Positions 9,603 through 29,934 of a stretch of 29,989 nucleotides of DNA are shown one piece after another (position 1 is the first letter of the stretch; each line of letters begins with the position of its first letter). The stretch covers positions 1-29,989 of the forward strand of contig NZ_JAIRAU010000047.1 in NCBI RefSeq assembly GCF_020073745.1, given 5' to 3'. Origin of the DNA: Nannocystis pusilla. GTDB lineage: Bacteria > Myxococcota_A > Polyangia > Nannocystales > Nannocystaceae. Made by a program: the position numbers and the translations under genes. The notes beneath the pieces are model-generated. The model was not told the DNA's origin. It saw nothing but the letters and a program-made list of their open reading frames with translations, and searched no databases.

Positions 9603-10877
9603 GTGGACCCGCGTCCCCTGCTCGAAGATCTCGCGCGATCGTACCGCGCTGCCGGCCCCGAGGTCGACGGCGAGCTGTACGACAACCGCCTGATCCGCGG
9701 CGACAACCTGCCCGCCCTGCTCGCGCTCGAGCCCGAGTTCGCCGGCAAGATCCGCTGCGTCTACATCGATCCGCCGTACAACACCGGCCGCGCCTTCGCC
9801 CACTACGACGACGGGGTCGAGCACGCCCGCTGGCTCGCCGACATCCGCGCGCGCCTCGAGGTGTTGCGCCGCCTGCTCGCCGCCGACGGCACCCTGTTCG
9901 TGCACATCGACGACAACGAGCTCGGCTACCTCATCGTCCTGCTCGACGAGGTGTTCGGGCGCGCCAACCGGGCCTCGGTCGTCACCTTCAAGCAAGGCGC
10001 GCCGACCGGCCACAAGGCGATCAACCCCGGCTGCGTCACCACCTCCAACTTCGTCCTCGTCTACGCGAAGGACCGCGCGCGCTGGAGCCCGCCGCGGCTG
10101 TTCACCGCCCGCGAGCGCGACCCACGCTACGCGCAGTTCATCGTCAATCGCGGCGAGCCGCACGAGGCGTGGCGGATCGTCACCCTGCTGCGGGCCTTCG
10201 CCGACGCCGAGGGCCTGGGCGAGCGGGCGGCCCGGCAGCTCGCGCGCGACGAGCCCGCGCGGCTCGACCGCTTCGTCCTCGACCACGCCGACGCCGTCGT
10301 CCGCCTCGCGCGGCCCGACTACAACGCCGTCAGCGCCGCCGCGCGGGCCATGATCGACCGCTCGAAGGCCGCGCCCGGGCAGGTCCTCCGGCTGGAGCGC
10401 GACGACCACGACGACTTCTACTTCGTCCGCGGCGAGCGGATCCTCTTCTACGCCGCCAAGCTCAAGCACATCGACGGCGAGCGGGTCGCCGGCGAGCCGC
10501 TCACCACCATCTGGGACGACCTGCTGTCCAACAACCTGCACAACGAGGGCGGCGTCGCCTTCCCCAAGGGCAAGAAGCCCGAGGCCCTGCTGAAGCGCGT
10601 GCTCGAGCTGTCGACCCGCCCCGGCGACTGGGTCCTCGACGTCTACGCCGGCTCGGGCACCACCGGCGCCGTCGCCCACAAGCTGCGGCGGCGGTGGATC
10701 CTCGTCGAGCGCGGCGACCACTGCGACGGCCTCGTCGCCGCCCGCCTGCGCGCCGTCGTCGACGGGCGCGACCCCAGCGGCGTCACCGCGGCGGTCGGCT
10801 GGCGCGGCGGCGGCGGCTTCCGCTACTTCCGCGTCGCGGATGTCGTTTCAGACATGTCCTCGGAGCCATGTCCATGA
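9603..10877 (+). CDS. Site-specific DNA methyltransferase, beta-class (N6-adenine or N4-cytosine; Type III Mod-like), apparently orphan.
   Basis: Motif IV VYIDPPYN precedes motif I VLDVYAGSGTTGAVAHKLRRRWILVE, with a KPEALLKRVLELS helix. The GTG start at 9603 is the first start after the stop at 9591. No restriction or helicase gene is adjacent. Confidence 0.85.
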   Translation: MDPRPLLEDLARSYRAAGPEVDGELYDNRLIRGDNLPALLALEPEFAGKIRCVYIDPPYNTGRAFAHYDDGVEHARWLADIRARLEVLRRLLAADGTLFVHIDDNELGYLIVLLDEVFGRANRASVVTFKQGAPTGHKAINPGCVTTSNFVLVYAKDRARWSPPRLFTARERDPRYAQFIVNRGEPHEAWRIVTLLRAFADAEGLGERAARQLARDEPARLDRFVLDHADAVVRLARPDYNAVSAAARAMIDRSKAAPGQVLRLERDDHDDFYFVRGERILFYAAKLKHIDGERVAGEPLTTIWDDLLSNNLHNEGGVAFPKGKKPEALLKRVLELSTRPGDWVLDVYAGSGTTGAVAHKLRRRWILVERGDHCDGLVAARLRAVVDGRDPSGVTAAVGWRGGGGFRYFRVADVVSDMSSEPCP

Positions 10878-10912: not shown

Positions 10913-11529
10913 CAACACGGCTCGGACGCGCCGACCTCGCCCCACTCCGCGGCGCACGGCGTGCTGCCCGGGTTGTAGGCGTCGGGGTTCCACTCGCCGC
11001 AGTCGAGCTCCGACATGCAGGCCCCGAAGCCGTCGAGCGCGGCCTTGCGCGACGGGCAGTCGCCCCAGTAGTCGTAGGTCGCCTGCAGGCACTCCTGCTG
11101 GTCGCCGTAGTAGGTCCCGCCGCACTCCTTGTAGCGGCGGCAGAACGCGTCCATGCCGTCCTCTCCGGGCAGCACGCCCGGCCCGTCGGTCGGCGCCGGC
11201 TCGGTCGTCGCCGTGCTCGTCGTGTCGGCGCCCATCGTCGTGCCGAGCGTCGGCTCGCCCGACGTCGGCGCGGTCTCGGTGCCGTCGCCCTCGGTCGCGC
11301 CGCTCGTGTCGGTGGCCGGGCCGCTGTCGTCGGTCGCGGTGGCGTCGGCGGTGTCGTCGCTGGCGTTGCCGGAGTTGCTGGCGTTGCTGCCGTTCGACGC
11401 GGCCGTCGGGTTGGCCGACGCCGCCGTCACATTCGTCGCGGAGTCGAGCGGGTCCTTGTCGTCGGAGCAGGCCAGGCCCAGGCACGCGGCCAGAGCGATG
11501 ATCGGGGGGTACAGGTCACGGAGGGTCAC
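10912..11529 (-). CDS. Secreted lipoprotein with an Asp/Thr/Ser/Asn-rich linker and a C-terminal 8-Cys domain.
   Basis: The GTG start at 11529 gives MTLRDLYPPIIALAAC (lipobox LAAC). The C-terminus is FCRRYKECGG..CLQATYDYWGDCP..CMSELDCGEW..PCAAEWG. An AT-richer promoter region lies upstream at 11535-11600. Confidence 0.6.
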   Translation of the reverse strand: MTLRDLYPPIIALAACLGLACSDDKDPLDSATNVTAASANPTAASNGSNASNSGNASDDTADATATDDSGPATDTSGATEGDGTETAPTSGEPTLGTTMGADTTSTATTEPAPTDGPGVLPGEDGMDAFCRRYKECGGTYYGDQQECLQATYDYWGDCPSRKAALDGFGACMSELDCGEWNPDAYNPGSTPCAAEWGEVGASEPC

Positions 11530-11621
11530 GCGGCGCGGAACATAGGAAAACAGCGCCTGCTTTTCCAGCCGCGCAATACACGCTTTCGCCTGTGCCACTG
11601 GCCGCGAACGATTCGCTCCGC

Positions 11622-12263
11622 TCACCACGACCACGGCGGGTCGTCGCCGACGATCACCACGTCGGCCGGGCGGCGCGCGAACAGCCCCACGCTCACCACC
11701 CCGGCGATCTGATCGATCGCCGACTCGAGCGCCTCCGGCTCGTCGATCACGAGCCCGTGGACGTCGAGGATCCACCCGCCGTTGTCGGTCACCACGTCCT
11801 CGCGCCACACGGGGGTGCCGCCGGTCATGCGGGCGATCGTGCGGGCCACCAGCTCGCGCGCCATCGGGATCACCTCGACCGGCAGCGGGGACCGTCCCAG
11901 CCGCTCGACGCGCTTGCTCGGGTCGACGATGCACACGAACCGCTCCGACGCCGCCGCCACGATCTTCTCGCGGGTCAGCGCCGCGCCGCCGCCCTTGACC
12001 AGGCGGCGGCGTGGGTCGCACGCGTCGGCGCCGTCGACGTACAGCGGCAGCGTCCCGGTCGCGTTGAGGTCGAGCACCGCGATCCCGCGCGCGCGCAGGC
12101 GGGCGGCCGTCTGCTCGGAGCTGGCGACCGCGCCGGCGATCCGCGCCGCCGGCAGCGCGTCGATGAAGTGGGCCACCGTCGAGCCGGTGCCCACCCCGAT
12201 GACTGTCCCTGCGGACACGTGAGCCAGCGCCGCCGCTGCCGCTCGCTGCTTCGCGTCCGTCAT
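11622..12263 (-). CDS. rpiA: Ribose-5-phosphate isomerase A.
   Basis: The full-length RpiA signature is present ([43 protein letters not shown]). Confidence 0.9.
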
Positions 12264-17412: not shown

Positions 17413-19740
17413 TCAACCCGGCGCCGGCGCGGTCTTGCGGCTCTCGGCGACGATCCGCACCAGGTCGGCCTCGTCCTCGCACAGCGCGACGATGAGGTCG
17501 CCCGGCGCCACCGCCTCGTCGGGCCGCGGGTTGACGATGAGCCGTCGGCGCAGCTCCGCGTGCGACGACCCGCCCGCCGGCACCTTCCCGCCCGGATCCG
17601 CCGCGCGGTACAGCCCCAGGGGCACCGCGCCCCCGCGCCCTTGCACCTCGAGCAGCGCGCGCCGGACCTTGCGCCACGGCTGTCCGATCAGCCAGGTGGG
17701 CGCCGGCGCCGTGTACACCTCGGCGTTGTCGTCGGCGAACGCGACCACCCGGTTGAACAGCTCCGCGAACGCGCGGTCGCGGCAGGCCATCACCAGCCAG
17801 CGGTGCGCCAGCGCCTGGCAGTCGACCGGCACCAGCCAGCCCGCGAACGGCGAGAACACCTCCTCGCGCTCCGCGTCGGACGTCTCCACCAGCGTCACCG
17901 GCAGCGCCGGCGCGGTGCGGGCGATCTCGACCGACGTCGCCGCCACCCCCAGCGTGCGCGCGCGCTGACCTCCGCCCACCGGATCGCGCGCGCACGCCTG
18001 ATGGACCGCGCGGGCGATCCGCAGCGGATCGTAGCCCTCGCCGCCCGCGTCGCCGTCGCCGAGCACGATCACCCGCGCCGCCCGCGGCAGCCGCAGCCCG
18101 GCCAGGTCCTCCGGCACCTCGGGGTTCGAGTGGTGGATCGTCAGCGCCTTGACCCGCGCCAACTGCAGCCGCACGCGCCGCGGCAGCGCGTCCGAGACCA
18201 CCACGTGCAGCGCCCGCGTGCGCGTCGGCCCCGGGCTGCGCAGCAGGCGGATCAGCGGCAGCATGTCCTCGCGGAAGTTGAGCACCACCAGGTGGTGCTT
18301 CAGCCGCCGCCACAGCCGCGTCTGCTCCTGCGCGAAGATGTTGGTCAGCGTCGCCGTGAACCACGCGAGCAGGCCGAGCCCGAGGATCGTCGCCGCCGCC
18401 CCGACCAGCCGCGCCGTCGGCGTCTTCAGCGTGTCGGTGGTGAAGTTGCCGGTGGCGAACGTGTTCATCTCCCAGAACGAGTCGTTCAGCGTCCGCAACC
18501 TGGCGTTCGAGTCATGTTCTAGAGACCAGACGATGAACGTCGACAGCGTCACCACGCAGGCGAACGCCGCGAACGGCACCAGCGGGTTCGACAGCTGGCT
18601 CTCGAGCCCGGCCCCCGGGACCCGGCGGCGGCGCAGCGCCCGGCGGATCAGGTACAGCGCCAGCCCGAGCGCCGCCGCCGACGCCCCCGCCTGCAGCCAC
18701 GCCGTCCGGCGCTCGCTGGTCTCGTGGATCTCCGCCACCGGGTGGAGCGGGATCGGCTCGCGCTCGGCGAAGCCGCGCCACTCGACGTTCACCCCGAGGC
18801 CCGCGTACTGCTCGTCGCGCTCGAGCTTGCGCAGCCCGTGGATCATCGCCTCCACCGCCAGCCGGCGGTCGGCCAGGAACGCCTCGTCCGCCAGACGCTC
18901 GCGCGGCGTCGCCATCAGCACCACCGAGCTCACGCACACCGTCGGCAGGCTGAACTCGAGGCCCGGATAGGTCCCGGTCTCGATCGGGCAGATCCGGTAG
19001 TACGGGTAGCCGTCGATCAGCCGGTTCAGCACCGCCTCGGGCAGCGGGTTCAGCGTCGCCAGCCCCGACGCCAGCACGTCGCGGATCTCCGCGTGTCCGA
19101 GCTCGGTGGTGCGCAGCATCGTCAGCACCTCGCGGCGGCTCATCGCCACCAGCGCCTCCTGGGCGCTGCCCATGAACAGCGGCAGCGACTCCGCCGTGTG
19201 CCCCGCCGCGCCGAGGATCACCTTCGCCGTCTCGTAGCTGCCCGAGCCGTCCTTGCCCATGAACAGCGCCTCGCGGCCGATGTCGGTGAAGTCGTCGAGC
19301 CGGACCGGCCGGCGCACCAGCACGTGGACCGCCGCGTCGGTGACCGCCGCCACCACCTGCAGTTCGGCCTTGTCGGCCTCCTCCGGCGACAGCTTGCACA
19401 TCCACCCGCCCTTCGGCGTCGCGCCGCCGCCCGCGCCGGCGTCGGCCTGCCCGGCCTTGTACGCCTCCGCGGCCACGTCGTACTGCACCAGCGCCACGTC
19501 GAGCTCGCCCGACAGCAGCTTGTGCACGTTCTCGCACGACCCCTTGGTCGTCTCCGGAACCACCGTCACGCGGCCCTCGCCGCGGACCGCCTCGGCCAGC
19601 GCCCGGACCATCGCGTCGAACCCGCCGCCCTTGCTGCCCGAGCCGAAGCGGACCTCGATCGCCTCGCCGGCCCGCGCGCTGCCTGCCTGAAAGAGCATGC
19701 CCACGAGGACAGGCCCGAACAGCCATGTCCGCTTGAACAT
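17413..19740 (-). CDS. Fusion protein: TAXI-family (TRAP-associated) solute-binding domain, then transmembrane pore module, then tandem RCK-like domains; a putative ligand-gated ion channel.
   Basis: Signal MFKRTWLFGPVLVGMLFQAGSARA. TAXI-like RFGSGSKGGGFDAMVRALAEAV. TM helices flank a pore-helix-like FWEMNTFATGNFTTDT (compare K-channel FWxxxTxTTVGYGD). Rossmann-like HLVVLNF.. and HVVVSD.. domains follow. The first ATG is at 19740; a TTG at 19770 is an alternative. Confidence 0.8.
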   Translation of the reverse strand: MFKRTWLFGPVLVGMLFQAGSARAGEAIEVRFGSGSKGGGFDAMVRALAEAVRGEGRVTVVPETTKGSCENVHKLLSGELDVALVQYDVAAEAYKAGQADAGAGGGATPKGGWMCKLSPEEADKAELQVVAAVTDAAVHVLVRRPVRLDDFTDIGREALFMGKDGSGSYETAKVILGAAGHTAESLPLFMGSAQEALVAMSRREVLTMLRTTELGHAEIRDVLASGLATLNPLPEAVLNRLIDGYPYYRICPIETGTYPGLEFSLPTVCVSSVVLMATPRERLADEAFLADRRLAVEAMIHGLRKLERDEQYAGLGVNVEWRGFAEREPIPLHPVAEIHETSERRTAWLQAGASAAALGLALYLIRRALRRRRVPGAGLESQLSNPLVPFAAFACVVTLSTFIVWSLEHDSNARLRTLNDSFWEMNTFATGNFTTDTLKTPTARLVGAAATILGLGLLAWFTATLTNIFAQEQTRLWRRLKHHLVVLNFREDMLPLIRLLRSPGPTRTRALHVVVSDALPRRVRLQLARVKALTIHHSNPEVPEDLAGLRLPRAARVIVLGDGDAGGEGYDPLRIARAVHQACARDPVGGGQRARTLGVAATSVEIARTAPALPVTLVETSDAEREEVFSPFAGWLVPVDCQALAHRWLVMACRDRAFAELFNRVVAFADDNAEVYTAPAPTWLIGQPWRKVRRALLEVQGRGGAVPLGLYRAADPGGKVPAGGSSHAELRRRLIVNPRPDEAVAPGDLIVALCEDEADLVRIVAESRKTAPAPG

Positions 19741-19765
19741 GCCCTTGGGGGCAGGCCCGCTCCGC
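19686..19765. repeat. Decamer cluster GAGCATGCCC (19693-19702), AGCCATGTCC (19721-19730), GAACATGCCC (19736-19745) plus GGGGGCAGGCCC; it overlaps the start and signal-peptide codons of the channel gene.
   Basis: It is directly visible. The codons in this segment include several rare ones (CCT, ACA, TTT, GCA). Confidence 0.6.
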
Positions 19766-19921
19766 CTCAACCTCCCACCTCCGCGCCCTCGTCCCGGCGC
19801 TGCCGACCCCGCGCGGGTCCCCTGCGCGTCGAGGCTGCCGCGCGCCTGCGGGCTCGCGCGCCCGTCGCGTGCCCGATCGGCCGTGTCCTCGCCGACACGC
19901 TCTGCGAAGCCCTGCGCCCCG

Positions 19922-20635
19922 TCACTCCGCCTCTCCCGTCAGCACCAGCAGCGCGCTGGCGTCGCGCAGGGGCCGGCCCGGGGCCGGGCTCAGCAGCATC
20001 GCCGGCTCTGCCCCCTCACCCGGCGCGAACAGCCCGATCAGCGTCACCGGGCGCCCGCAGCGGTCGACCTCGATCTCGAGGCAGGCCTCGCGGAACGTCC
20101 GCGCGCGCAGCTCCGGCGGCACCGGCCAGGTCTCGGCGCGCAGGCGGCCGGACAGCAGCGCCAGCATGAAGCGGAACGCCCCGAGGTCGACGCACGCGTG
20201 GGCCAGCAGGGCCGCGCGCAGGAAGCCCGGGTAGAAGATCGTCGCCACCCCGAGCCCCTCGAACTCGTGGGTCGCCTCCGGGTCCTCGACCGCCACCACC
20301 ACGTGCGGCGGCCCGCCCTTGCACGCCCGCTGGATCGCCGTGCACACCAGGCGCGAGAACGCGTCGGTCTCGCCGTGCCCGCGCAGCGGCAGCACCACGA
20401 TCGCGTCGGCGGCCGGCAGGTCGGCCGTGTCGGCGAAGAAGCGCGCCAGCGCCTCGACCCCGCCGCTCGCCGATCCCTGCCAGTACCTTTCGACATGTCC
20501 TTCGGGCAAGCTCGCCAGCGCCGGCGCCACCGCCTCCGCCGGCGCCGGCCCGATCAGCGTCAGCGCCGGGCGCGGCTCCGCGGCCGCGATCGCGCGCACC
20601 AGCCCCAGCGCCTCCGGCGTCCAGTGAATCACCAC
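19922..20635 (-). CDS. Stand-alone RCK/TrkA-like regulatory domain protein, paralogous to the C-terminal part of the adjacent channel.
   Basis: VVIHWTPEALGLVRAIAAA..HVVVAVEDPEATHEF resembles the RCK regions of the 17413-19740 gene. The GTG start at 20635 is inferred; the ORF is open to 20947, but the upstream part is Ala/Gly-rich low complexity. The stop at 19922 is clear. Confidence 0.5.
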   Translation of the reverse strand: MVIHWTPEALGLVRAIAAAEPRPALTLIGPAPAEAVAPALASLPEGHVERYWQGSASGGVEALARFFADTADLPAADAIVVLPLRGHGETDAFSRLVCTAIQRACKGGPPHVVVAVEDPEATHEFEGLGVATIFYPGFLRAALLAHACVDLGAFRFMLALLSGRLRAETWPVPPELRARTFREACLEIEVDRCGRPVTLIGLFAPGEGAEPAMLLSPAPGRPLRDASALLVLTGEAE

Positions 20636-21075: not shown

Positions 21076-21783
21076 GTGCTCGGCCAGCTGCGGGTGGCCC
21101 TCCTCGTCTACGTCCTCGGCAGCCCGGTGATCGGCGCCGCCACCAGCCTCGCCATCTCGACCGCGGGCACCCTCACCGGCACCCTGCGGCACGCCCGCGA
21201 GGGCCGCGTCAGCCCGTGGCTGCTCGCCACCGTCGGCGCGCCCTCGGCCCTGGCCGCCTTCCTCACCGCGCGCTGGGCCGGCAGCATCGACGCCCGCGCG
21301 CTCAAGGCCGCGATCGCCGTCGTCCTGCTGCTGACCGGCCTGAGCATGTCACGTCGCCGGCCCGAGCCCACCGGTCCTTCGGAACATGTCTCTTCACGCA
21401 GCTTCGCCGTCGCCGCCGAGGTCGTCGTCGGCACCGCTCTCGGCGCGATCTCGGGCCTCGTCGGCCTCCTCCTCGGCAGCCTGCGCCTGCCGGCGATGAT
21501 CCGCTACGCCCGCGTCCCGCCGCCCGTGGCCGTCGGCACCAACATGGCGATCGGCGCCGTCACCGGGCTGTCGGCGGGCGTCGCCACCTTCCTCGAGGGA
21601 CAGGTCCACTTCGGCGCCTTCGCGGTCGTCACCCCGCTCACCCTGCTCGGCGCCAACCTCGGCGCCCGCCGCACCGGCCGCCTCGACGAGGCCAGCCTGC
21701 GCCGCTGGATCGCCTGGATCCTCCTGCTCTCCGCCGCCCTCATGCTCGGCGAGCTGGGCGTGGCCCTCTACCGCGCCGGCTGA
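21076..21783 (+). CDS. TauE/SafE-family (DUF81) membrane exporter.
   Basis: It is a multi-TM protein with the conserved glycine-rich first helix IGATVGLVLG and the paired motif in the second half (VAVGTNMAIGAVTGL). The first canonical start is the GTG at 21076, but the conserved helix is encoded upstream in the same frame (open from 20983), so the true N-terminus is uncertain. Confidence 0.65.
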   Translation: MLGQLRVALLVYVLGSPVIGAATSLAISTAGTLTGTLRHAREGRVSPWLLATVGAPSALAAFLTARWAGSIDARALKAAIAVVLLLTGLSMSRRRPEPTGPSEHVSSRSFAVAAEVVVGTALGAISGLVGLLLGSLRLPAMIRYARVPPPVAVGTNMAIGAVTGLSAGVATFLEGQVHFGAFAVVTPLTLLGANLGARRTGRLDEASLRRWIAWILLLSAALMLGELGVALYRAG

Positions 21784-21841
21784 GCCAATGCGGCGCGTTG
21801 ACCGCCCATGCCCGAGGCGGTAAGACAACCTGCAGAAGCTC

Positions 21842-22981
21842 ATGGCCCCGAATTGGAAGGCGCTGGCCCCTCACCGTCCGCTCGATCCGGGCGAGGCCGG
21901 CTACGTCTCCCCGCCCTCCGGCTACGCCGAGCGAGTCGCCCGCCTCGTCGAGACGGGAACTTCGACCGTCCTGGTCGGCGGCCCGGTCGGTGTCGGCAAG
22001 AGCACCGAGCTCGCACGGATCGCCTCGCTCCTCCGAGACACGCGCGTCGCCTGCCTGGTGCAGCTCGACCGTTATGAAAACATCCGTCGCCTCACCGCCG
22101 ATCAGATGCTCCTTCGGCTGGCCGGAAAAATTGTCGAGTACGCCAGCGCCACGCTCCGGATCCGCCCCTCGATGTCGCTCGTCGCCGCATTGAGCGGCGC
22201 GGGTGTGGCCTCCCCGAGCGTCCTCGGTGGCATGCAAATGCCAGCCGCGCCGTTCACGGGCAGTCCGCTCTCGCTCCTGCAGGCGGCCCGCGACGAAGTC
22301 ACACGCCGCGCGCATGGTCTTCGGCTCGCGGTGATTTGCGACGGGCTCGAGAAGATGCCCGAATCAGCCCAATCGCTGGAGGTGCTTGCGACCCTCGGCC
22401 AGCTCGGCGACGACATCGACATCATCGCTGCCGTGCCATGGTTCGTCGCCTTCGGAGCCGCGGAAGACATCATCCGTCCCGGCGCTTTGTTCGCGCCCGT
22501 GCCCGTGTGCGAAGTCGATGGCCCGCAGGGGCCGCGTGGCTGCCGATTCCTCGCAGACATCCTGGCAGAGCGGCTCGGGATGACCCCAGGAGCGTTGGCC
22601 GCGGCCGAGAGAGCCAGACCGGGGCTCGCGCAGGTCGTGGAGCTCGCACGATGGAGCGGCGGGCTTCCGCGCACATTCCTACAACTCGCGGCGGACGCCG
22701 CTCAGTACGCCCAGATCCGCCGCGGTGACGACTGGCCGGACGAGCGAGACCTCGCCGACGCCGTCTCTGACCAGAGAGACAGCTTCCGGCGCGCCCTGCT
22801 ACCGGGCGACACGGACGCGATCCGTGCCGTGCAGGGCACCGATGGGCGAGAGATGGAGTTGGACCGCAAGATCCGCCTGCTCGCGCGCGGCATCATCCTC
22901 GAGCGCCAACGCGGCGACCGCTGGGTGATGGACGTCCACCCGCTCGTCCTCCAACTCCTCGGGGGCTCGCGCGGTGCGTGA
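21842..22981 (+). CDS. P-loop NTPase, 379 aa.
   Basis: Walker A is VLVGGPVGVGKSTE and Walker B is LRLAVICDGLE. The N-terminal NWKALAPHRPLDPGE..Y resembles the N-termini of STAND / archaeal-ATPase-type AAA proteins. It is the first gene of the coupled operon. Confidence 0.8.
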   Translation: MAPNWKALAPHRPLDPGEAGYVSPPSGYAERVARLVETGTSTVLVGGPVGVGKSTELARIASLLRDTRVACLVQLDRYENIRRLTADQMLLRLAGKIVEYASATLRIRPSMSLVAALSGAGVASPSVLGGMQMPAAPFTGSPLSLLQAARDEVTRRAHGLRLAVICDGLEKMPESAQSLEVLATLGQLGDDIDIIAAVPWFVAFGAAEDIIRPGALFAPVPVCEVDGPQGPRGCRFLADILAERLGMTPGALAAAERARPGLAQVVELARWSGGLPRTFLQLAADAAQYAQIRRGDDWPDERDLADAVSDQRDSFRRALLPGDTDAIRAVQGTDGREMELDRKIRLLARGIILERQRGDRWVMDVHPLVLQLLGGSRGA

Positions 22982-23516
22982 ACCCGGCGTCGCCCTCGCC
23001 GGCGCGCTCGCGCGCGACGAGGGCGGCCTCGCCATCGTCACGTGCCCCGATCTCGACCTGCGCGACTGGCTCGTCCGCGAGGTCGAGAGCCTCGCGCCCA
23101 CCGACGCCGACCCCTTTCGCACGAGCTCCGTCGCCGACGCGCTGCGCGAACCGAACCGCATGGCCTTGCTCGTCCCGAACGACGAGGCCGAGGTCGTGCG
23201 CGACCTCGACGCCTGCCGCGACCAGGCGCTGAACCCTCCGCGCACCCAGCCGATCGTCCTCTTCTTGCTCCGTCAGGGGGACGGCCACCGCGTCCTCGCC
23301 ACCGAGGCGCCGAGCGCCTGGAGCTGGGCCAGCGGCAGCGACGTCGACCCCGAGAAGCTCGCCGAGCTCGACATCGACGCCGAGCGCGCGGCCTTCGAGC
23401 AGGACACCGGCAGCGCCCCCGAGGCGTGGCTCGTGCCCTGGCGCGCAGGCCGGCTCCCGCGCACCCAGGAGAACTACACGCAGGCGTTCTGGGCCATGAC
23501 GCTGGAGCGGTCATGA
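22974..23516 (+). CDS. Hypothetical protein, 180 aa; its start overlaps the upstream stop.
   Basis: The GTG at 22974 overlaps the TGA at 22979-22981. Codon bias is excellent throughout. Confidence 0.7.
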   Translation: MREPGVALAGALARDEGGLAIVTCPDLDLRDWLVREVESLAPTDADPFRTSSVADALREPNRMALLVPNDEAEVVRDLDACRDQALNPPRTQPIVLFLLRQGDGHRVLATEAPSAWSWASGSDVDPEKLAELDIDAERAAFEQDTGSAPEAWLVPWRAGRLPRTQENYTQAFWAMTLERS

Positions 23517-24136
23517 AAGCCTGGGCGGAGCTCTACCGCCAGCACCAGGCTTTGCGGGCGATGAGCGACCGCGAGGCCGCCAACGACGTCCGCAAGGTCC
23601 TGCGCAAGCTGTCCGAAAAGCCTTATGCCGTCCTCCGCCGCGACGCCCAGGCCCGGCTGGTCGAGGCTCGAGTGCCGCACAGCGCCTCGGTCCAGTACAC
23701 CCTCGGCCGCGAGCGCGCCGGCGAGGAGCTCGAGCTCGACACCTTACCCGACGTACTCCGCGACGTCGTCGCTCTCCGCTGCGCCAGGCTCGCCGTCCTC
23801 CTGCGCTTCGATCGCCGGGCCGAGCGCCTGCAGGAGCTCAACATCATGCTCCGCGGCCTGCGGCACGACGGCTCGCCGTGGGCCGTGGCCGTCCACCTCC
23901 CCCACGACAGCGACGCGAGGCCGCAAGGCGACCGCGACGGCCTCGGCGCTTGCGGTCACGCCGCCTTGCATTGCCACGTCGGGCCGACCCTCGACATCGC
24001 GCCCAAGGTCCGTGTGCCGTTCCCGCCGCTGGCACCGGCGCAGATCGTCGAGTGGGCAGTATCACAGGTCGTCCCCACCGCCGAGTTCGAGCCCGCCCCC
24101 TGGTCCGCCGTCGCGGCCATGCTTCGCCCATCGTGA
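23513..24136 (+). CDS. Hypothetical protein, 207 aa; ATGA start/stop overlap.
   Basis: The ATG at 23513 overlaps the TGA at 23514-23516. Codon bias is good. Confidence 0.7.
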   Translation: MKAWAELYRQHQALRAMSDREAANDVRKVLRKLSEKPYAVLRRDAQARLVEARVPHSASVQYTLGRERAGEELELDTLPDVLRDVVALRCARLAVLLRFDRRAERLQELNIMLRGLRHDGSPWAVAVHLPHDSDARPQGDRDGLGACGHAALHCHVGPTLDIAPKVRVPFPPLAPAQIVEWAVSQVVPTAEFEPAPWSAVAAMLRPS

Positions 24137-25934
24137 TCGTGACCGAGCTCGAGCGCTTCCTCGCCTTCGCCGGGCGGGCCGTCCCTGCCGCGTTCGGCGC
24201 CGGCCTCGAACCCGCCGCGCTCCGCGCCCACTGGCGCCGCGCCGGCCAAGCGATCGGCGCCCGGCTCGTCCTCGCCTGCGCGCGCGAGCGGCTCGTCGAG
24301 AGTGACCTGCAGGACATGTCCCTTCAGACATGCTCATTGAGCCTCCCGCTGCGGCGCCTGCGGGCCTTCGAGTTGCACGCCGCCGACCTCGACGCCAGCG
24401 ACCTCCCCGAGCTCGCCGAGCTGCTCCCGCGCCTGCTCCCCGCCCTCGCCCCGCCGGTGCGCGCCCGCCTCGCGCGCGAGCTCGGCGACAGCCGCTGGAA
24501 CCTCGCCCTCGCCCGGGTCGCCGCCGACCTGCGCGAACGGACATGCTCCATGGGACACCTCTGGCGCGGCCCGCTCGACCCCGAGAACCTGGTCGTCGAC
24601 GGCCACCCCTGGCACCCCATGAGCAAGACCCGGCTCGGCCTGCGCGCCTGGGAGGACCTGCGCCACGGCCCCGATCAGCTGGCCCAGGCGCCCGTCCACG
24701 CCGTCGACCTCGCCCGCGGCGACGCCCTGCTCGCCGCCGAGGCGGTCTTTGCCGACATCTCGCGCGAGCTGTTCCCCGCCCCCGCGCCCGGGTACGTCCG
24801 CCTGCCCGTCCACGCGCTCCAGCTGCGCCGGCTGCCGCGCCTGCTCGGCCCGCTGTGGGGCGACCGCGTGCGGCCCGTCGCCGTCGCGCCGCGGTCGGCG
24901 CGGGCCCTGCTCAGCCTGCGCACCGTCGCCCTCGCCGTTCCCGCGCTGCACCTCAAGCTCGCCGTCGACATCCACACCACCAGCGCGCGGCGGCAGGTCT
25001 CGCCCGCCTCCGTCCACAACGGCCCGCCGATCGCCGCGCTGCTGCGCCGGATCCAGGCCGCCGATCCGCACACCCGCCGCGGCCTGCGGATCCAGCCCGA
25101 CCTCGCCGCCGCCGGCCTCGACCCGCGCCATGGGCCCGTCGCCGGCCAGCTCGGCGTGGTCGTCCGCCCCGACCTCGCCCCGCTCGCCCGCGAGGTCGCC
25201 CGCGACCCGGCCCCTCCTCTGGGACATGCTCCCAGCGACATGTCCCCGAGCACATTCCCCGTCGAACATGTCCCCGAGGTCATCGTCTGCGCCGCCCTCG
25301 GCGAGCGCCGGCCGGGCGGCGACCTGCTGCTGCGCGAGCTCGCGGCCGCCTACCCGGGCGACCTGCGCGTCCGCCTCGCCGCCTTCTTCGCCGACTACCT
25401 CGACCAGCTCGTCCCGCCGCTGCTGCGCCTCCTCACCGCCCACGGCGTCGCCCTCGAGGCCCACCTGCAGAACGCCCTGCTCGTGCACGCAGGCGGCCGC
25501 CCGCGGGGCTTCCTCGTCCGCGACCTCGGGGGCGTGCGGCTCCACCGCGGCCGCCTCGCCGCCGGCGGTCACGCGCCCGCGCTCGCGTCCGACTCGTTCG
25601 TGATCACGCACGAGCTCGCCGAGGCCCAGGGCAAGCTGATGCACACGCTGGTGCACGCACACCTCGCGGCGGTGATCGGCTGGGTCGACGACGCCGGCGG
25701 CCCCGACCCGGCGCAGCTGTGGCCGGAGGTGCGGCGGATCTTCCAGCACCACCTCGAGCGCTGGTCGACCGAGCCCGCGCTGGCGCGCGCGTGCGCCGAC
25801 GATCGCGCGTTCTTCGGCGCGGCCACCTGCCGCAGCAAGGCGCTGCTCGCCATGCGCATCGACGAGCGCGTCAGCGATTACGCCTATACCGAGGTCGCCA
25901 ACGCGCTCGCCGCCGGGTACTCTTCCCCCGCCGC

Positions 25935-25938
<4 letters not shown>
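24133..25938 (+). CDS. IucA/IucC-family (NRPS-independent siderophore synthetase-like) adenylating amide/ester ligase.
   Basis: [21 protein letters not shown] (compare PVHPWQ), [34 protein letters not shown] and RDLGGVRL match the family motifs as I remember them. GTGA overlaps the upstream stop. Three in-frame repeat-motif segments lie at 24312-24335, 24538-24557 and 25221-25277. Confidence 0.8.
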
Positions 25939-26866
<928 letters not shown>

Positions 26867-26882
<16 letters not shown>

Positions 26883-26903
26883 ACCCTGTCCCAGGAGACA
26901 TTG
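26867..26903. repeat. GGACATGTCC (26867-26876) plus ACCCTGTCCCAGGAGACATTG; the second part contains the AGGAGA ribosome-binding site for nadE.
   Basis: It is directly visible and spans the Prs-like stop and the 22-bp gap before nadE. Confidence 0.6.
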
Positions 26904-26904
26904 A

Positions 26905-28887
26905 ATGCACCTCGTCCGCGTCGCCGCCGCCGCCCTCAACCAGACGCCGCTCGACTGGGACGGCAACCAGGCCCGGATCCTCGAGGCGATCCGCCTGGCC
27001 CGCCAGCAGGGCGTCGCCGTCCTGGTCCTGCCCGAGCTGTGCATCCCCGGCTACGGCTGCGAGGACGCGTTCTTCGGCCGCGGCACGATCCTCGAGTCGT
27101 GGCGCGTGCTGCAGGAGCTGCTGCCGGAGACGCAGGGCATCGTCGTCGCGCTCGGCCTGCCGATCATGCACCGCGCCGCCAACTACAACGCGGTGTGCCT
27201 GGTCGCCGACGGCCACATCGTCGGCCTGGTCGGCAAGCGCTTCCTCGCCGGCGACGGCATCCACTACGAGCCGCGGTGGTTCAAGGGCTGGCCGGCCGGC
27301 AAGTTCGTGCAGTGGGAGCACGACGGCCACAGCTACCCGCTCGGCGACCAGATCTTCGAGGTCGGCGGCCTGCGGATCGGCTTCGAGATCTGCGAGGACG
27401 CGTGGGTCCCGAACCGCCCCGGCGTCGAGCTCGCCAGCCAGGGCGTCGACTTCATCTGCAACCCGAGCGCCAGCCACTTCGCCTTCGGCAAGCACGAGGT
27501 GCGCAAGCAGATCGTCCTCAACGCCTCGCGCAGCTTCCGCGCCACCTACGTCTACTCCAACTTCATCGGCAACGAGTCCGGCCGCGTCATCTACGACGGC
27601 GAGTGCATGATCGCCTCGATCGGCCACCTGATCGCCGAGGGCCCGCGGCTCGGCTACGACGACGTGTACCTCACCAGCGCCGTGGTCGACGTCGACCTCG
27701 CGCGCATGCTCCACGCCCGCACCACCTACGCGCCCACCGTCGACGACAACGTCCGCCGGATCACCCGCTTCGACATGAAGCTCCCGGGCGCCGACCTGCC
27801 GCCGCACACCGTCGACCCCGACGACGAGCTGCGCAACGACAAGCGTGAGGAGTTCTCGCGGGCCGTCGCGCTCGGCCTGTTCGACTACCTGCGCAAGAGC
27901 CGGTCGCGCGGCTTCGTCGTCTCGCTCAGCGGCGGCGCCGACTCGGCCGCCGTCGCCTACCTCGTGCACGTCATGGTCATGCTCGCGGTCCAGGAGCTCG
28001 GCGTCGAGGCCACCTGCGCCCGCCTGGGCCTGCCCGAGGGCGTGTGCACCACCCCGCGCGCGATCGTCCGCTCGCTCCTCACCTGCGTCTACCAGTCGAC
28101 CGCCAACAGCTCCGACACCACGCGCAACGCCGCCGCCGCGGTCGCCGAGGCCGTCGGCGCCGAGTTCATCGAGTTCGACGTCGACCCGCTGGTGCGCACC
28201 TACGTGAGCAACGTCGAGGCCGCGATCGGCCGCGAGCTGTCGTGGCAGCGCGACGACATCGCCCTGCAGAACATCCAGGCCCGCGCCCGCGCCCCCGGCG
28301 TGTGGCTGCTGGCCAACCTGCGCGGCGCCCTCCTGCTCGCCACCAGCAACCGCAGCGAGGCCGCCGTCGGCTACGCCACCATGGACGGCGACACCTGCGG
28401 CGGCCTGTCGCCGATCGCCGGCATCGACAAGGCCTTCCTGCGCGAGTGGCTGCGGTGGGTCGAGGCCGAGGGCCCCGCGGGCGTCGGCCCCATGCCCGCC
28501 CTGCGCGCCGTCAACGTCCAGGCCCCGACCGCCGAGCTGAGGCCCTCCGGCGCCCACCAGACCGACGAGGGCGACCTGATGCCCTACCCGATCCTCGACG
28601 CCATCGAGCGCGCGGCGATCCGCGACAAGCTGGCGCCGAAGGAGGTCTACCGGGTGCTCGCCAGCCGCTTCCCGCAGCGATCCCGCGACCAGCTGCTGCT
28701 GTGGGTCAAGCGCTTCTTCCGCCTGTGGAGCCAGAACCAGTGGAAGCGCGAGCGCTACGCGCCGAGCTTCCACCTCGACGACGAGAACCTCGACCCCAAG
28801 ACGTGGTGCCGCTTCCCGATCCTCTCGGGCGGCTTCGCGCACGAGCTCGCCGAGCTCGAGGCCTTCGTCAAGCACGACGACGACTGA
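26905..28887 (+). CDS. nadE: Glutamine-dependent NAD+ synthetase (N-terminal CN-hydrolase/nitrilase domain plus C-terminal NAD synthetase domain), 660 aa.
   Basis: The nitrilase-like domain has catalytic-region motifs (LPELCIPGY, FEICED). The PP-loop is SGGADSA. The length matches the long glutamine-dependent form. AGGAGA lies 6 nt upstream of the ATG. Confidence 0.9.
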   Translation: MHLVRVAAAALNQTPLDWDGNQARILEAIRLARQQGVAVLVLPELCIPGYGCEDAFFGRGTILESWRVLQELLPETQGIVVALGLPIMHRAANYNAVCLVADGHIVGLVGKRFLAGDGIHYEPRWFKGWPAGKFVQWEHDGHSYPLGDQIFEVGGLRIGFEICEDAWVPNRPGVELASQGVDFICNPSASHFAFGKHEVRKQIVLNASRSFRATYVYSNFIGNESGRVIYDGECMIASIGHLIAEGPRLGYDDVYLTSAVVDVDLARMLHARTTYAPTVDDNVRRITRFDMKLPGADLPPHTVDPDDELRNDKREEFSRAVALGLFDYLRKSRSRGFVVSLSGGADSAAVAYLVHVMVMLAVQELGVEATCARLGLPEGVCTTPRAIVRSLLTCVYQSTANSSDTTRNAAAAVAEAVGAEFIEFDVDPLVRTYVSNVEAAIGRELSWQRDDIALQNIQARARAPGVWLLANLRGALLLATSNRSEAAVGYATMDGDTCGGLSPIAGIDKAFLREWLRWVEAEGPAGVGPMPALRAVNVQAPTAELRPSGAHQTDEGDLMPYPILDAIERAAIRDKLAPKEVYRVLASRFPQRSRDQLLLWVKRFFRLWSQNQWKRERYAPSFHLDDENLDPKTWCRFPILSGGFAHELAELEAFVKHDDD

Positions 28888-29226: not shown

Positions 29227-29934
29227 ATGCGCCGGTCGAGCTTACTCCTGTGTACGCTCGTGGCCTGCGCCGCCGCCATGGACGAGCCCACCCAAGCCCG
29301 CAGCCGCATGGTCGAGCAACAGCTGGCCGGCCGCGACATCACCGACGAGCATGTCCTTTCGGCCATGCGCCGGGTCCCGCGCGAGCGGTTCGTCCCGCCC
29401 GAGGATCAGCGCTTCGCCTACGGCGATCATCCGCTGCCGATCGGCCACGGCGCCACCATCAGCCAGCCGTACATCGTCGCGCTCATGACCCAGCTCGCGC
29501 GCGTGCAGCCGGGCGACCGCGTGCTCGACGTCGGCACCGGCTCCGGCTACCAGGCCGCCGTGCTGGCCGAGATGGGCGCCGAGGTCTACAGCATCGAGGT
29601 CGTGACCGCGCTGGCCGAGCAGGCCGCCAGCCTGCTGGAGGAGCTCGACTACGACAACGTCCACGTGCGCGCCGGCGACGGCTACCGCGGCTGGCCGGAG
29701 GCCGCGCCGTTCGCCGCCATCATCGTCGCCGCCGCCGCCCCGACGATCCCGCGCCCGCTCACCGAGCAGCTCGCCGTCGGCGGCCGCCTCGTGATCCCCG
29801 TCGGCGAGTTCGTCCAGGACCTGCAGGTGCTCGAGAAGCGCCCGAGCGGCGACCTCCACCTCGAGACCGTCCTGCCGGTGCGCTTCGTGCCGATGGTCGG
29901 CGAGGTCGAGTCGCAGCCGCGCTCGCGCTACTGA
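29227..29934 (+). CDS. pcm: Protein-L-isoaspartate (D-aspartate) O-methyltransferase with an N-terminal lipoprotein-type signal peptide.
   Basis: TISQPYIVALMTQLA, VLDVGTGSGYQAAVLAE and VRFVPMVG align to E. coli Pcm. The N-terminus MRRSSLLLCTLVACAAA has an LVAC lipobox. Confidence 0.85.
   Translation: MRRSSLLLCTLVACAAAMDEPTQARSRMVEQQLAGRDITDEHVLSAMRRVPRERFVPPEDQRFAYGDHPLPIGHGATISQPYIVALMTQLARVQPGDRVLDVGTGSGYQAAVLAEMGAEVYSIEVVTALAEQAASLLEELDYDNVHVRAGDGYRGWPEAAPFAAIIVAAAAPTIPRPLTEQLAVGGRLVIPVGEFVQDLQVLEKRPSGDLHLETVLPVRFVPMVGEVESQPRSRY

Follow-up and report, generated by a model that had tools for sequence, protein, structure and literature searches.

The window analysed here, a stretch of 29,989 nucleotides from Nannocystis pusilla (contig NZ_JAIRAU010000047.1; 72% GC), contains six closely packed plus-strand open reading frames, g1 to g6. 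The first, g1 (21842-22981, 379 aa), encodes an ORC/Cdc6-STAND-type AAA+ ATPase with a C-terminal winged-helix-like domain, and is followed by two genes for proteins of uncharacterised families, g2 (22974-23516, 180 aa) and g3 (23513-24136, 207 aa), the latter with an invariant G-x-G-x-C-x-H-x3-H-x-H motif. Downstream of this trio lie g4 (24133-25938), a ligase gene combining an IucA/IucC domain with a FhuF-like C-terminal domain, as in nonribosomal-peptide-synthetase-independent siderophore (NIS) synthetases; g5 (25935-26882), encoding a Prs-family ribose-phosphate diphosphokinase of what we call the TMER clade (after YYGYATMER); and g6 (26905-28887), encoding the 660-aa glutamine-dependent NAD+ (nicotinamide adenine dinucleotide) synthetase NadE. 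The initial annotation had delimited the same six genes and read them as stoichiometrically co-expressed, possibly as one pathway to a new metabolite or as an NAD-linked system. The gene structure was borne out: the junctions read GTGCGTGA (g1/g2, 22974/22981), ATGA (g2/g3, 23513/23516), GTGA (g3/g4, 24133/24136) and ATGA (g4/g5, 25935/25938), whereas the nadE start at 26905 is preceded by a 22-bp gap with its own Shine-Dalgarno sequence, AGGAGA. A GC-frame gene caller, which relies on codon-position GC only, independently returned the same six genes with the same start codons, and the N-termini of the window proteins match those of their homologues. The single-pathway reading, in contrast, did not withstand the comparison of gene neighbourhoods, which splits the block into three modules, namely g1-g3 (module A), g4 (module B, hereafter also Iuc) and g5-g6 (module C). 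We consider it probable that these are evolutionarily separable units with distinct roles, packed together in this lineage.

Overlaps of four nucleotides are frequent in genomes of 72% GC and do not by themselves prove a common function; the six genes are probably co-transcribed in the N. pusilla genome. The GC content at third codon positions (GC3) is coding-like throughout (0.82, 0.94, 0.89, 0.95, 0.97 and 1.00 for g1 to g6); the value of g1 falls below that of g3 and below those of g2 and g4-g6 (0.94-1.00), which was an early warning sign against regarding the block as a single unit. Furthermore, the junctions are not equally stable: the g2/g3 overlap is conserved (-4 in 19 of 26 loci), and the Iuc/Prs overlap is gone in relatives, being replaced by a gap of 37 bp in locus L054 and of about 100-190 bp in L063-L065 (tblastn coordinates). 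The g1 product matches a Nannocystis pusilla protein at 100% identity, and the top homologues of Iuc come from Nannocystis spp.

The separability of the trio is evident from related genomes. In N. exedens the order is TauE (a membrane transporter gene), a 43-bp spacer, Iuc, Prs, NadE and PCMT (a methyltransferase gene), with no trace of g1-g3; the trio-less order with TauE upstream is found also in L053 (Iuc 66% identity; TauE and Iuc are separated there by one unrelated gene on the minus strand) and L054 (50%), as well as in the metagenome contigs L059, L063-L065 and L114, with Iuc identities of 50-66% across L053, L054, L063-L065 and L114. Since this arrangement is present both in N. exedens and in more distant relatives, we take the trio-less state to be ancestral for this neighbourhood. 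The six-gene order of the window recurs in N. punicea and in N. pusilla Na p29. In the latter (L026, 10001-17156), the tblastn matches of g1, prs and nadE are all broken up or shortened, owing to either assembly frameshifts or decay. The trio also diverges faster than its neighbours, as the window and N. punicea share 63% identity in g1, 78% in Iuc and 92% in Prs. Hence, a fixed link between the upstream genes and Prs-NadE does not hold, because the trio is absent from the TauE-Iuc-Prs-NadE locus of N. exedens and more distant relatives and occurs elsewhere with other neighbours.

When one genome per GTDB species was scanned with an alignment of the ATPase, 44 loci emerged, nearly all of them from Myxococcota, and in about 36 of these tblastn recovered the complete trio with order and strand preserved. 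Clustering of all flanking genes revealed that the neighbours of the trio are nearly always unique to the locus, with two recurring contexts: the TauE/Iuc site of Nannocystis (the window, L009 and L026) and type-2 BREX (bacteriophage exclusion) loci. In the latter, the genes run PglW-PglX-trio-PglY-PglZ-BrxD and the trio overlaps its neighbours by 4 nt on either side, as seen in Sorangium L005 and in L008, L014 and L017; in L047 the contig begins inside g1, so that only the trio-PglY-PglZ-BrxD part is visible, and L030 carries a decayed copy of the trio in type-2 BREX, which brings the total to five or six genomes. N. punicea possesses two copies, one at the TauE/Iuc site (63% identity) and one in BREX-2 (45%), and the closest relative outside the Iuc site, in a Nannocystis metagenome-assembled genome (L010; g2 75% identity), lies in yet another context. 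Within one or two genes upstream of the trio we found the defence genes McrBC (L013) and a PLD-ResIII-DUF3427 helicase (L023), as well as AAA_21/15 with DUF3226 (L012) and AAA_21/15 (L011). No integrase or transposase was present among the recurrent neighbours, and tblastn with the Sorangium and L008 proteins for PglW, PglX, PglY/BrxC, PglZ and BrxD detected no type-2 BREX gene in the window. An AAA_21/AAA_15 ATPase with a small partner (DUF4276, DUF3226 or an unassigned protein) recurs beside the trio or its BREX-2 host locus (L005:2379-4168, L011:7089-9736, L012:598-2564 and L014:5225-5782), and its insertion sites vary, being between pglW and pglX in Sorangium and directly 5' of g1 elsewhere. 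An apparent enrichment of Ser/Thr kinases near the trio, together with PD-T4-6 matches, was discounted, as kinases are abundant in Myxococcota.

The g1 product yielded a high-confidence structural model (predicted local distance difference test, pLDDT, 92.8) with an ORC/Cdc6-STAND-type fold consisting of an AAA+ core, a helical lid and a winged helix, and its Walker A and Walker B motifs are invariant in homologues. The Pfam AAA_16 match (28.6 bits) remained slightly below the 32.6-bit cut-off, whereas precomputed domain matches of g1 homologues list PF13191; the earlier assignment of g1 as a STAND/AAA-like ATPase agrees with fold and motifs. As already noted in the initial annotation, g2 and g3 lack a recognisable domain: neither gave a consistent match in Pfam, NCBIfam, PADLOC, PHROG or PDB sequences, whether searched singly, member by member or, against PDB, as a profile, and profiles of the three trio proteins matched PDB sequences over the P-loop only or not at all. 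Likewise, no component model of PADLOC 2.0 matches g1-g6, the sole match being at chance level (g3, E 0.037). Conservation within the two families is nevertheless sharp, with ten invariant residues in g2 (E71, L78, R82, R90, F97, G102, D133, F141, W152 and A174) and four in g3 (C147, H149, H153 and H155). The g3 family comprises 123 representatives in 1.84 billion proteins, all of them standalone and of about 190 aa; its AlphaFold2 model was unusable (pLDDT 57). Single-linkage clustering had joined g2 and g3 as possible paralogues, but BLASTP shows no similarity between them and the grouping is an artefact. Their size and position before PglY raised the idea that they are analogues of BrxA and BrxB, which was rejected, as no DUF1819 or DUF1788 match at E <= 1 was obtained in 24 members of each family. 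According to a BREX survey (PMC12839542), type-2 BREX already has BrxA/BrxB-like domains within PglW.

Comparison with described systems suggests that the trio is an undescribed candidate module associated with defence islands or BREX-2, and we found no described system that matches it. Its relatives sit between pglX and pglY of type-2 BREX/Pgl (PglW, PglX, PglY, PglZ, BrxD and BrxHI) with 4-nt overlaps, and BrxC and BrxD share the ORC/Cdc6-STAND ATPase fold of g1; however, most trio copies lie outside BREX, the window lacks BREX genes, and g2 and g3 bear no profile similarity to the BrxA or BrxB families. Among the STAND or ORC/Cdc6 ATPase defence modules, Avs, RADAR RdrA and the archaeal PAB2304/SSO1545 differ in that g1 is much smaller (379 aa), has no fused sensor repeats or effector domain and is partnered by two novel small proteins, without PADLOC membership at the sequence level. 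BREX operons are reported to house auxiliary effector genes (PMC12839542), and the passages of that survey retrieved by keyword mention neither the trio nor Myxococcota. Taken together, the architecture may correspond to a sensor or switch ATPase, an adaptor and a metal-dependent effector residing in defence islands.

The identification of g4 as an IucA/IucC protein was confirmed by profile search, with 112.5 bits for IucA_IucC (residues 151-352; cut-off 25) and 101.8 bits for the FhuF-like C-terminal domain (residues 417-579; cut-off 25.2). Moreover, g4 aligns with AcsD at GHPxHP..K.R and HLQN...RD (GHPSHPAPKAR and EPHLQN...LRDFEG in AcsD; EAHLQN...VRDLGG in g4), where the Glu of the AcsD RDFEG is replaced by Gly (RDLGG). 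We take the motifs GHPxHP..K.R, (E)xHLQN and RDxxG/E to form the ATP/Mg site of AcsD. The protein is nonetheless very divergent: phmmer gives 44 bits to AcsD, and the best NCBIfam match, the rhizoferrin synthetase FslA, reaches 80 bits, far below its cut-off of 1000. The named members among its 118 homologues all belong to Nannocystaceae or to unnamed Myxococcales, apart from a few very distant matches. In Plesiocystis/Enhygromyxa-type genomes, the Iuc orthologue (43-44% identity) has no Prs or NadE neighbour and is followed instead by a protein of 826-868 aa without assignment and a Tubulin_2 protein of 1083-1084 aa (L001:11892-20579 and L055:9889-17770). These other neighbours indicate that the link of Iuc to Prs-NadE and TauE is confined to the Nannocystis subclade. 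This conserved Plesiocystis/Enhygromyxa-type set is completed by one more gene for a large protein, about 900 aa in length (903 aa in L001; truncated in L055, where the locus ends).

With respect to function, g4 shares its two-domain architecture, and would share the putative ATP-site motifs, with NIS synthetases (AcsD, AsbB, IucA/IucC and FslA/LbtA), and it resembles rhizoferrin and legiobactin loci in being a stand-alone synthetase that adjoins a transporter. Legiobactin loci have such a stand-alone synthetase beside a transporter. It differs from NIS siderophore loci in that the transporter belongs to the TauE family rather than to the major facilitator superfamily, that receptor and precursor genes are missing, and that its clade is restricted to Nannocystaceae. 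In agreement with the initial annotation, which had denied a canonical siderophore cluster, no decarboxylase, monooxygenase, acyltransferase or TonB receptor gene was found in the annotated part of the window (9603-29989), where only the TauE-family transporter lies upstream. In the simplest reading, g4 would be an NIS synthetase of the polycarboxylate type that stands alone and has an exporter next to it.

The third module is that of the Prs variant and NadE. As proposed from the outset, g5 is Prs-like: it scores 173.5 bits with TIGR01251 (cut-off 113) and remains below the equivalog NCBIfam cut-offs (PRK01259, 150.7/296; PRK00934, 139.4/297; PRK07199, 126.6/322). Aligned with E. coli Prs, it keeps the catalytic K-R-R loop, the DLHA histidine (LDLHAEGI) and the ribose-5-phosphate loop DDMIRTGGS, the E. 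coli counterparts being DKRRPR, VDLHAEQI and VDDMIDTGGT. The replacement of ARQDR in the regulatory flexible loop (E. coli YFGYARQDRR) by ATMER is real, invariant in orthologues and near-universal in the clade. Since T. thermophilus Prs has ARSDKK at this position, the ARQD(R/K) motif is not absolute.

A metagenome scan seeded with g5 orthologues retrieved 62 loci (GC 0.46-0.78; 31-82% identity to g5), and the motifs FPDGERY, Y(Y/F)GY(A/S)TMER and YDDM(I/V)RTGGS are common to g5 and its metagenome relatives (42-82% identity). NadE follows the TMER-Prs gene directly in 27 of the 41 loci with enough downstream sequence and lies within 6 kb in two more; the preceding gene, in the 40 loci with enough upstream sequence, is a divergent nicotinate phosphoribosyltransferase (NAPRTase)-like gene in 10, Iuc in 8 and a canonical NAPRTase in 5. 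Pfam confirmed the presence of NadD (CTP_transf_like) and NAPRTase in TMER-Prs operons. Given these NadE, NadD and NAPRTase neighbours, the TMER-Prs clade belongs to NAD biosynthesis/salvage operons, and g5, as judged from its sequence and context, would be a phosphoribosyl pyrophosphate (PRPP) synthase of the NAD pathway rather than an exotic enzyme. The IucA/IucC-Prs-NadE triad, whose conservation had been proposed as a check, is linked only in the Nannocystis subclade, with Iuc occurring elsewhere without Prs/NadE and Prs-NadE occurring elsewhere without Iuc. Prs paralogues dedicated to NAD operons were noted, unexplained, by Rodionov et al. (2008; PMC2330246). The prs-nadV operons of the NrtR regulon described there resemble the present case in that a Prs-family gene directly adjoins NAD genes, which would provide a committed PRPP supply, and differ in that g5 is partnered by NadE (with NadD and NAPRTase in other lineages) instead of NadV, carries TMER for RQDR, and has no NrtR gene in the window.

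The g6 product exceeds the Pfam cut-offs for both CN_hydrolase (79.6 bits) and NAD_synthase (107.1 bits), as expected for the NadE originally assigned, and scores 93.2 bits with TIGR00552 (cut-off 63.65). It falls below the full-length equivalog cut-offs (PRK13981, 257.4/479 bits; PRK02628, 231.4/473 bits) and is a divergent lineage of the NadE family. The nitrilase-type E-K-C triad and the SGGxDS motif, assigned by eye against known motifs (LVLPELC, VGKRFL, FEICED and LSGGADS), the 89-93% identity in N. exedens, N. punicea and N. pusilla Na p29, and the GC3 of 1.00 are consistent with a working, probably housekeeping, NadE.

Several further features of the TMER-Prs clade deserve mention. In some operons (L097:6392-7945, L109:6373-7902, and also L101-L104 and L092) a family of about 510 aa lies between NadD and TMER-Prs, in the place held elsewhere by canonical NAPRTase; it has no Pfam match above threshold, shows weak similarity to NAMPT_N (E 1e-3) and to NAPRT in PDB (1yir, E 9.5e-4), and probably represents a divergent pyridine phosphoribosyltransferase of type II. 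In distant TMER-Prs operons, NadE (L097:9113-12088) has a C-terminal extension of about 250 aa (tail 11333-12085) with a sub-threshold Isochorismatase/nicotinamidase match (22.9 bits against 27) and relatives in 14 loci, and may be a NadE-PncA fusion. The 95-kb metagenome contig Ga0163149_10000127 (L087 and L109) bears two TMER-Prs and NadE sets about 24 kb apart, which speaks against the pair being a single-copy housekeeping unit in every case. A Prs subclade without NadE (L068, L072, L074, L075 and L084; 59-63% identity to g5) adjoins a purine-nucleoside-phosphorylase-like gene, DUF1846 and a GGDEF-like protein, and its motif reads FGYQTMER (L068 and L072).

The block is bordered upstream by the TauE/SafE-family membrane transporter gene (21076-21783, plus strand; Pfam TauE, 117 bits), which in the Nannocystis clade is conserved upstream of Iuc (L003, L009, L026, L053, L054, L059, L063-L065 and L114), and downstream by the gene for PCMT, protein-L-isoaspartate O-methyltransferase (29227-29934, plus strand; Pfam PCMT, 216 bits), a conserved neighbour outside the unit that follows NadE in L003, L007 and L053. 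Between TauE and g1, a promoter-like element, TTGACC-N17-TAAGAC (21798-21826, plus strand), ends 15 nt 5' of the g1 ATG; TTGACC-N17-TAAGA(C/A) is common to the TauE-g1 spacers of the three trio-bearing Nannocystis genomes (window, N. punicea and N. pusilla Na p29), and the short spacer of N. exedens lacks it. It was not scored by a strict consensus scan, and its promoter role is putative; sigma-70 promoter, terminator and Rfam scans found nothing, which is uninformative at 72% GC. GGTA(A/C)(A/G)A-like -10 elements also occur 5' of g1 in the unrelated loci L013, L020, L029 and L049. Divergently upstream of TauE (17413-20635, minus strand), genes for a 775-aa NMT1_3-domain protein and a family-less 237-aa protein are conserved throughout the Nannocystis clade (L003, L053 and L054). 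Farther away, about 14 kb upstream of prs, lies a gene for ribose-5-phosphate isomerase A (11622-12263, minus strand), which makes the substrate of Prs, and near it an N6/N4 DNA methylase gene (9603-10877, plus strand); no link of either to the block was established.

We propose that module A (21842-24136) is a self-contained cassette that would move between chromosomal sites in Myxococcota, often into defence loci, and that may have been inserted between tauE and iuc in a Nannocystis sublineage, the promoter-like element being upstream only in trio-bearing genomes. Its presumably active ATPase would serve as a nucleotide-dependent sensor or switch, g3 as a metal-dependent effector and g2 as an adaptor, jointly forming a defence or conflict module. 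Module B would be an NIS-type, ATP-dependent carboxylate-amine/alcohol ligase, which together with the TauE-family transporter may make and export a polycarboxylate (rhizoferrin-like) compound. In module C, g5 would supply PRPP for pyridine nucleotide synthesis and g6 would catalyse the last step of NAD synthesis, as the same pair lies in NadD-NAPRTase-Prs-NadE operons elsewhere. The original hunches of an NAD-linked and of a defence-related system thus each fit one part of the locus, Prs-NadE and the trio, respectively, and not the whole block.

Several observations weigh against so complete a division of the locus. The trio-Iuc-Prs-NadE order holds even between Nannocystis species with no more than 63% identity in the ATPase, and the g3/Iuc GTGA overlap is also present in N. 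punicea, so some functional integration of the trio with Iuc-Prs-NadE in the Nannocystis lineage deserves to be kept in view. That all six genes form one stoichiometrically co-expressed pathway, whether to a ribose- or nucleotide-derived amide metabolite or as an NAD-linked signalling/defence system, would agree with the overlaps at four of the five gene boundaries, the recurrence of the order in N. punicea and N. pusilla Na p29, and the succession of three ATP-using carboxylate- or phosphate-activating enzymes. Such a pathway is nevertheless very unlikely, as the three parts occur independently in most genomes carrying them, the trio is found in unrelated contexts including BREX-2, Prs-NadE is accounted for by NAD operons, and the GC3 of g1 differs. 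A smaller unit of g4-g6, perhaps with TauE, in which the substrate of the ligase would be a carboxylate derived from pyridine or ribose, or the ligase would otherwise feed or use the NAD branch in place of NAPRTase, seems unlikely too, albeit less so. The TauE-Iuc-Prs-NadE synteny is retained even where Iuc identity has fallen to 50%, which could stem from a genuine connection between Iuc, Prs and NadE instead of inherited order; Iuc fills the slot upstream of TMER-Prs that NAPRTase holds in other lineages; the Iuc/Prs ATGA overlap is present in Nannocystis; and no PncB, NadD or PncA lies within about 10 kb of the Nannocystis-clade loci. On the other hand, the Plesiocystis/Enhygromyxa-type orthologues of Iuc lack the Prs/NadE neighbour, the Iuc/Prs overlap is lost in L054 and L063-L065, synteny inside one family-level clade may be mere inheritance, and we know of no NIS synthetase with activity on pyridine carboxylates.

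The role of the trio and the activity of g5 also admit other readings. A new stand-alone defence-island module without a functional tie to the NAD genes is a possibility to which we give somewhat less than even weight. Against a defence role, the BREX-2 loci with the trio are mutually close (PglY 70-90% identical) and may represent one or two independent events, many contexts are housekeeping ones (AsmA/YhdP, acyl-CoA dehydrogenases), no relatives were found in IMG/VR or among PLSDB plasmids, no PHROG model matches the trio, and its flanks have no convincing direct or inverted repeats. These points, with the lack of PADLOC matches and the almost exclusive location on Myxococcota chromosomes, would suit a chromosomal regulatory, assembly or toxin-antitoxin-like ATPase system whose presence in BREX-2 goes back to one historical insertion. 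We regard such a system as rather unlikely, because the flanks are highly variable, unrelated loci repeatedly have defence genes of different kinds immediately before the trio, two copies that have diverged from each other coexist in one genome, and the trio evolves faster than its neighbours. It is a long shot that the three trio proteins make up a new anti-phage or conflict system, both stand-alone and a type-2 BREX add-on, that in Nannocystis became wired through its own promoter and translational coupling to Iuc-Prs-NadE, so that its firing drives PRPP/NAD resupply. As for g5, Prs homologues can pyrophosphorylate ADP-ribose, as does Adps of the phage NARP1 pathway, and NARP1-like genes may serve housekeeping roles in some bacteria, according to a preprint (bioRxiv 10.1101/2024.02.11.579819). 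An Adps-like g5 would let Prs-NadE rebuild NAD from ADP-ribose via a deamidated route, and its linkage to NadE and to nicotinate/nicotinamide phosphoribosyltransferase-like genes fits ADP-ribose pyrophosphate + nicotinate -> nicotinate adenine dinucleotide -> NAD. NARP1 (Adps with Namat) is similar in devoting a Prs-family enzyme to NAD supply; however, Adps adjoins Namat, whereas g5 is partnered by NadE and has no Namat. The motif pattern is opposite, as Adps (AV124) combines YARQDR with an altered loop, DDICDGGRT, and in g5 TMER goes with an unaltered DDMIRTGGS; identity between g5 and the phage homologues is 23-31%, and by motif g5 is no closer to them than to E. coli Prs. Moreover, the phosphoribosyltransferase-like partner of g5-related loci has no BLASTP similarity to Namat, and with NadD present in TMER-Prs operons the usual Preiss-Handler route is complete. 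An identification of g5 with Adps was rejected on the grounds of motif pattern and partner genes, and an activity of this kind appears extremely improbable.

If the locus were read as one operon, it would imply a new nucleotide-amide pathway; the comparative data point instead to an artefact of tight packing at high GC, with three separable modules side by side. The parts that merit follow-up are the trio and the TMER-Prs clade. Should the trio be a defence or BREX-accessory module, it would extend the parts list of a system that is mechanistically still poorly understood, and if its firing did drive PRPP/NAD resupply in Nannocystis, this would mean a NAD-homeostasis arm built into an immune module. 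The TMER-Prs clade, in turn, makes testable the question raised in 2008 of why certain bacteria retain a PRPP synthase set apart for NAD synthesis, to which an escape from purine-nucleotide feedback is a candidate answer.

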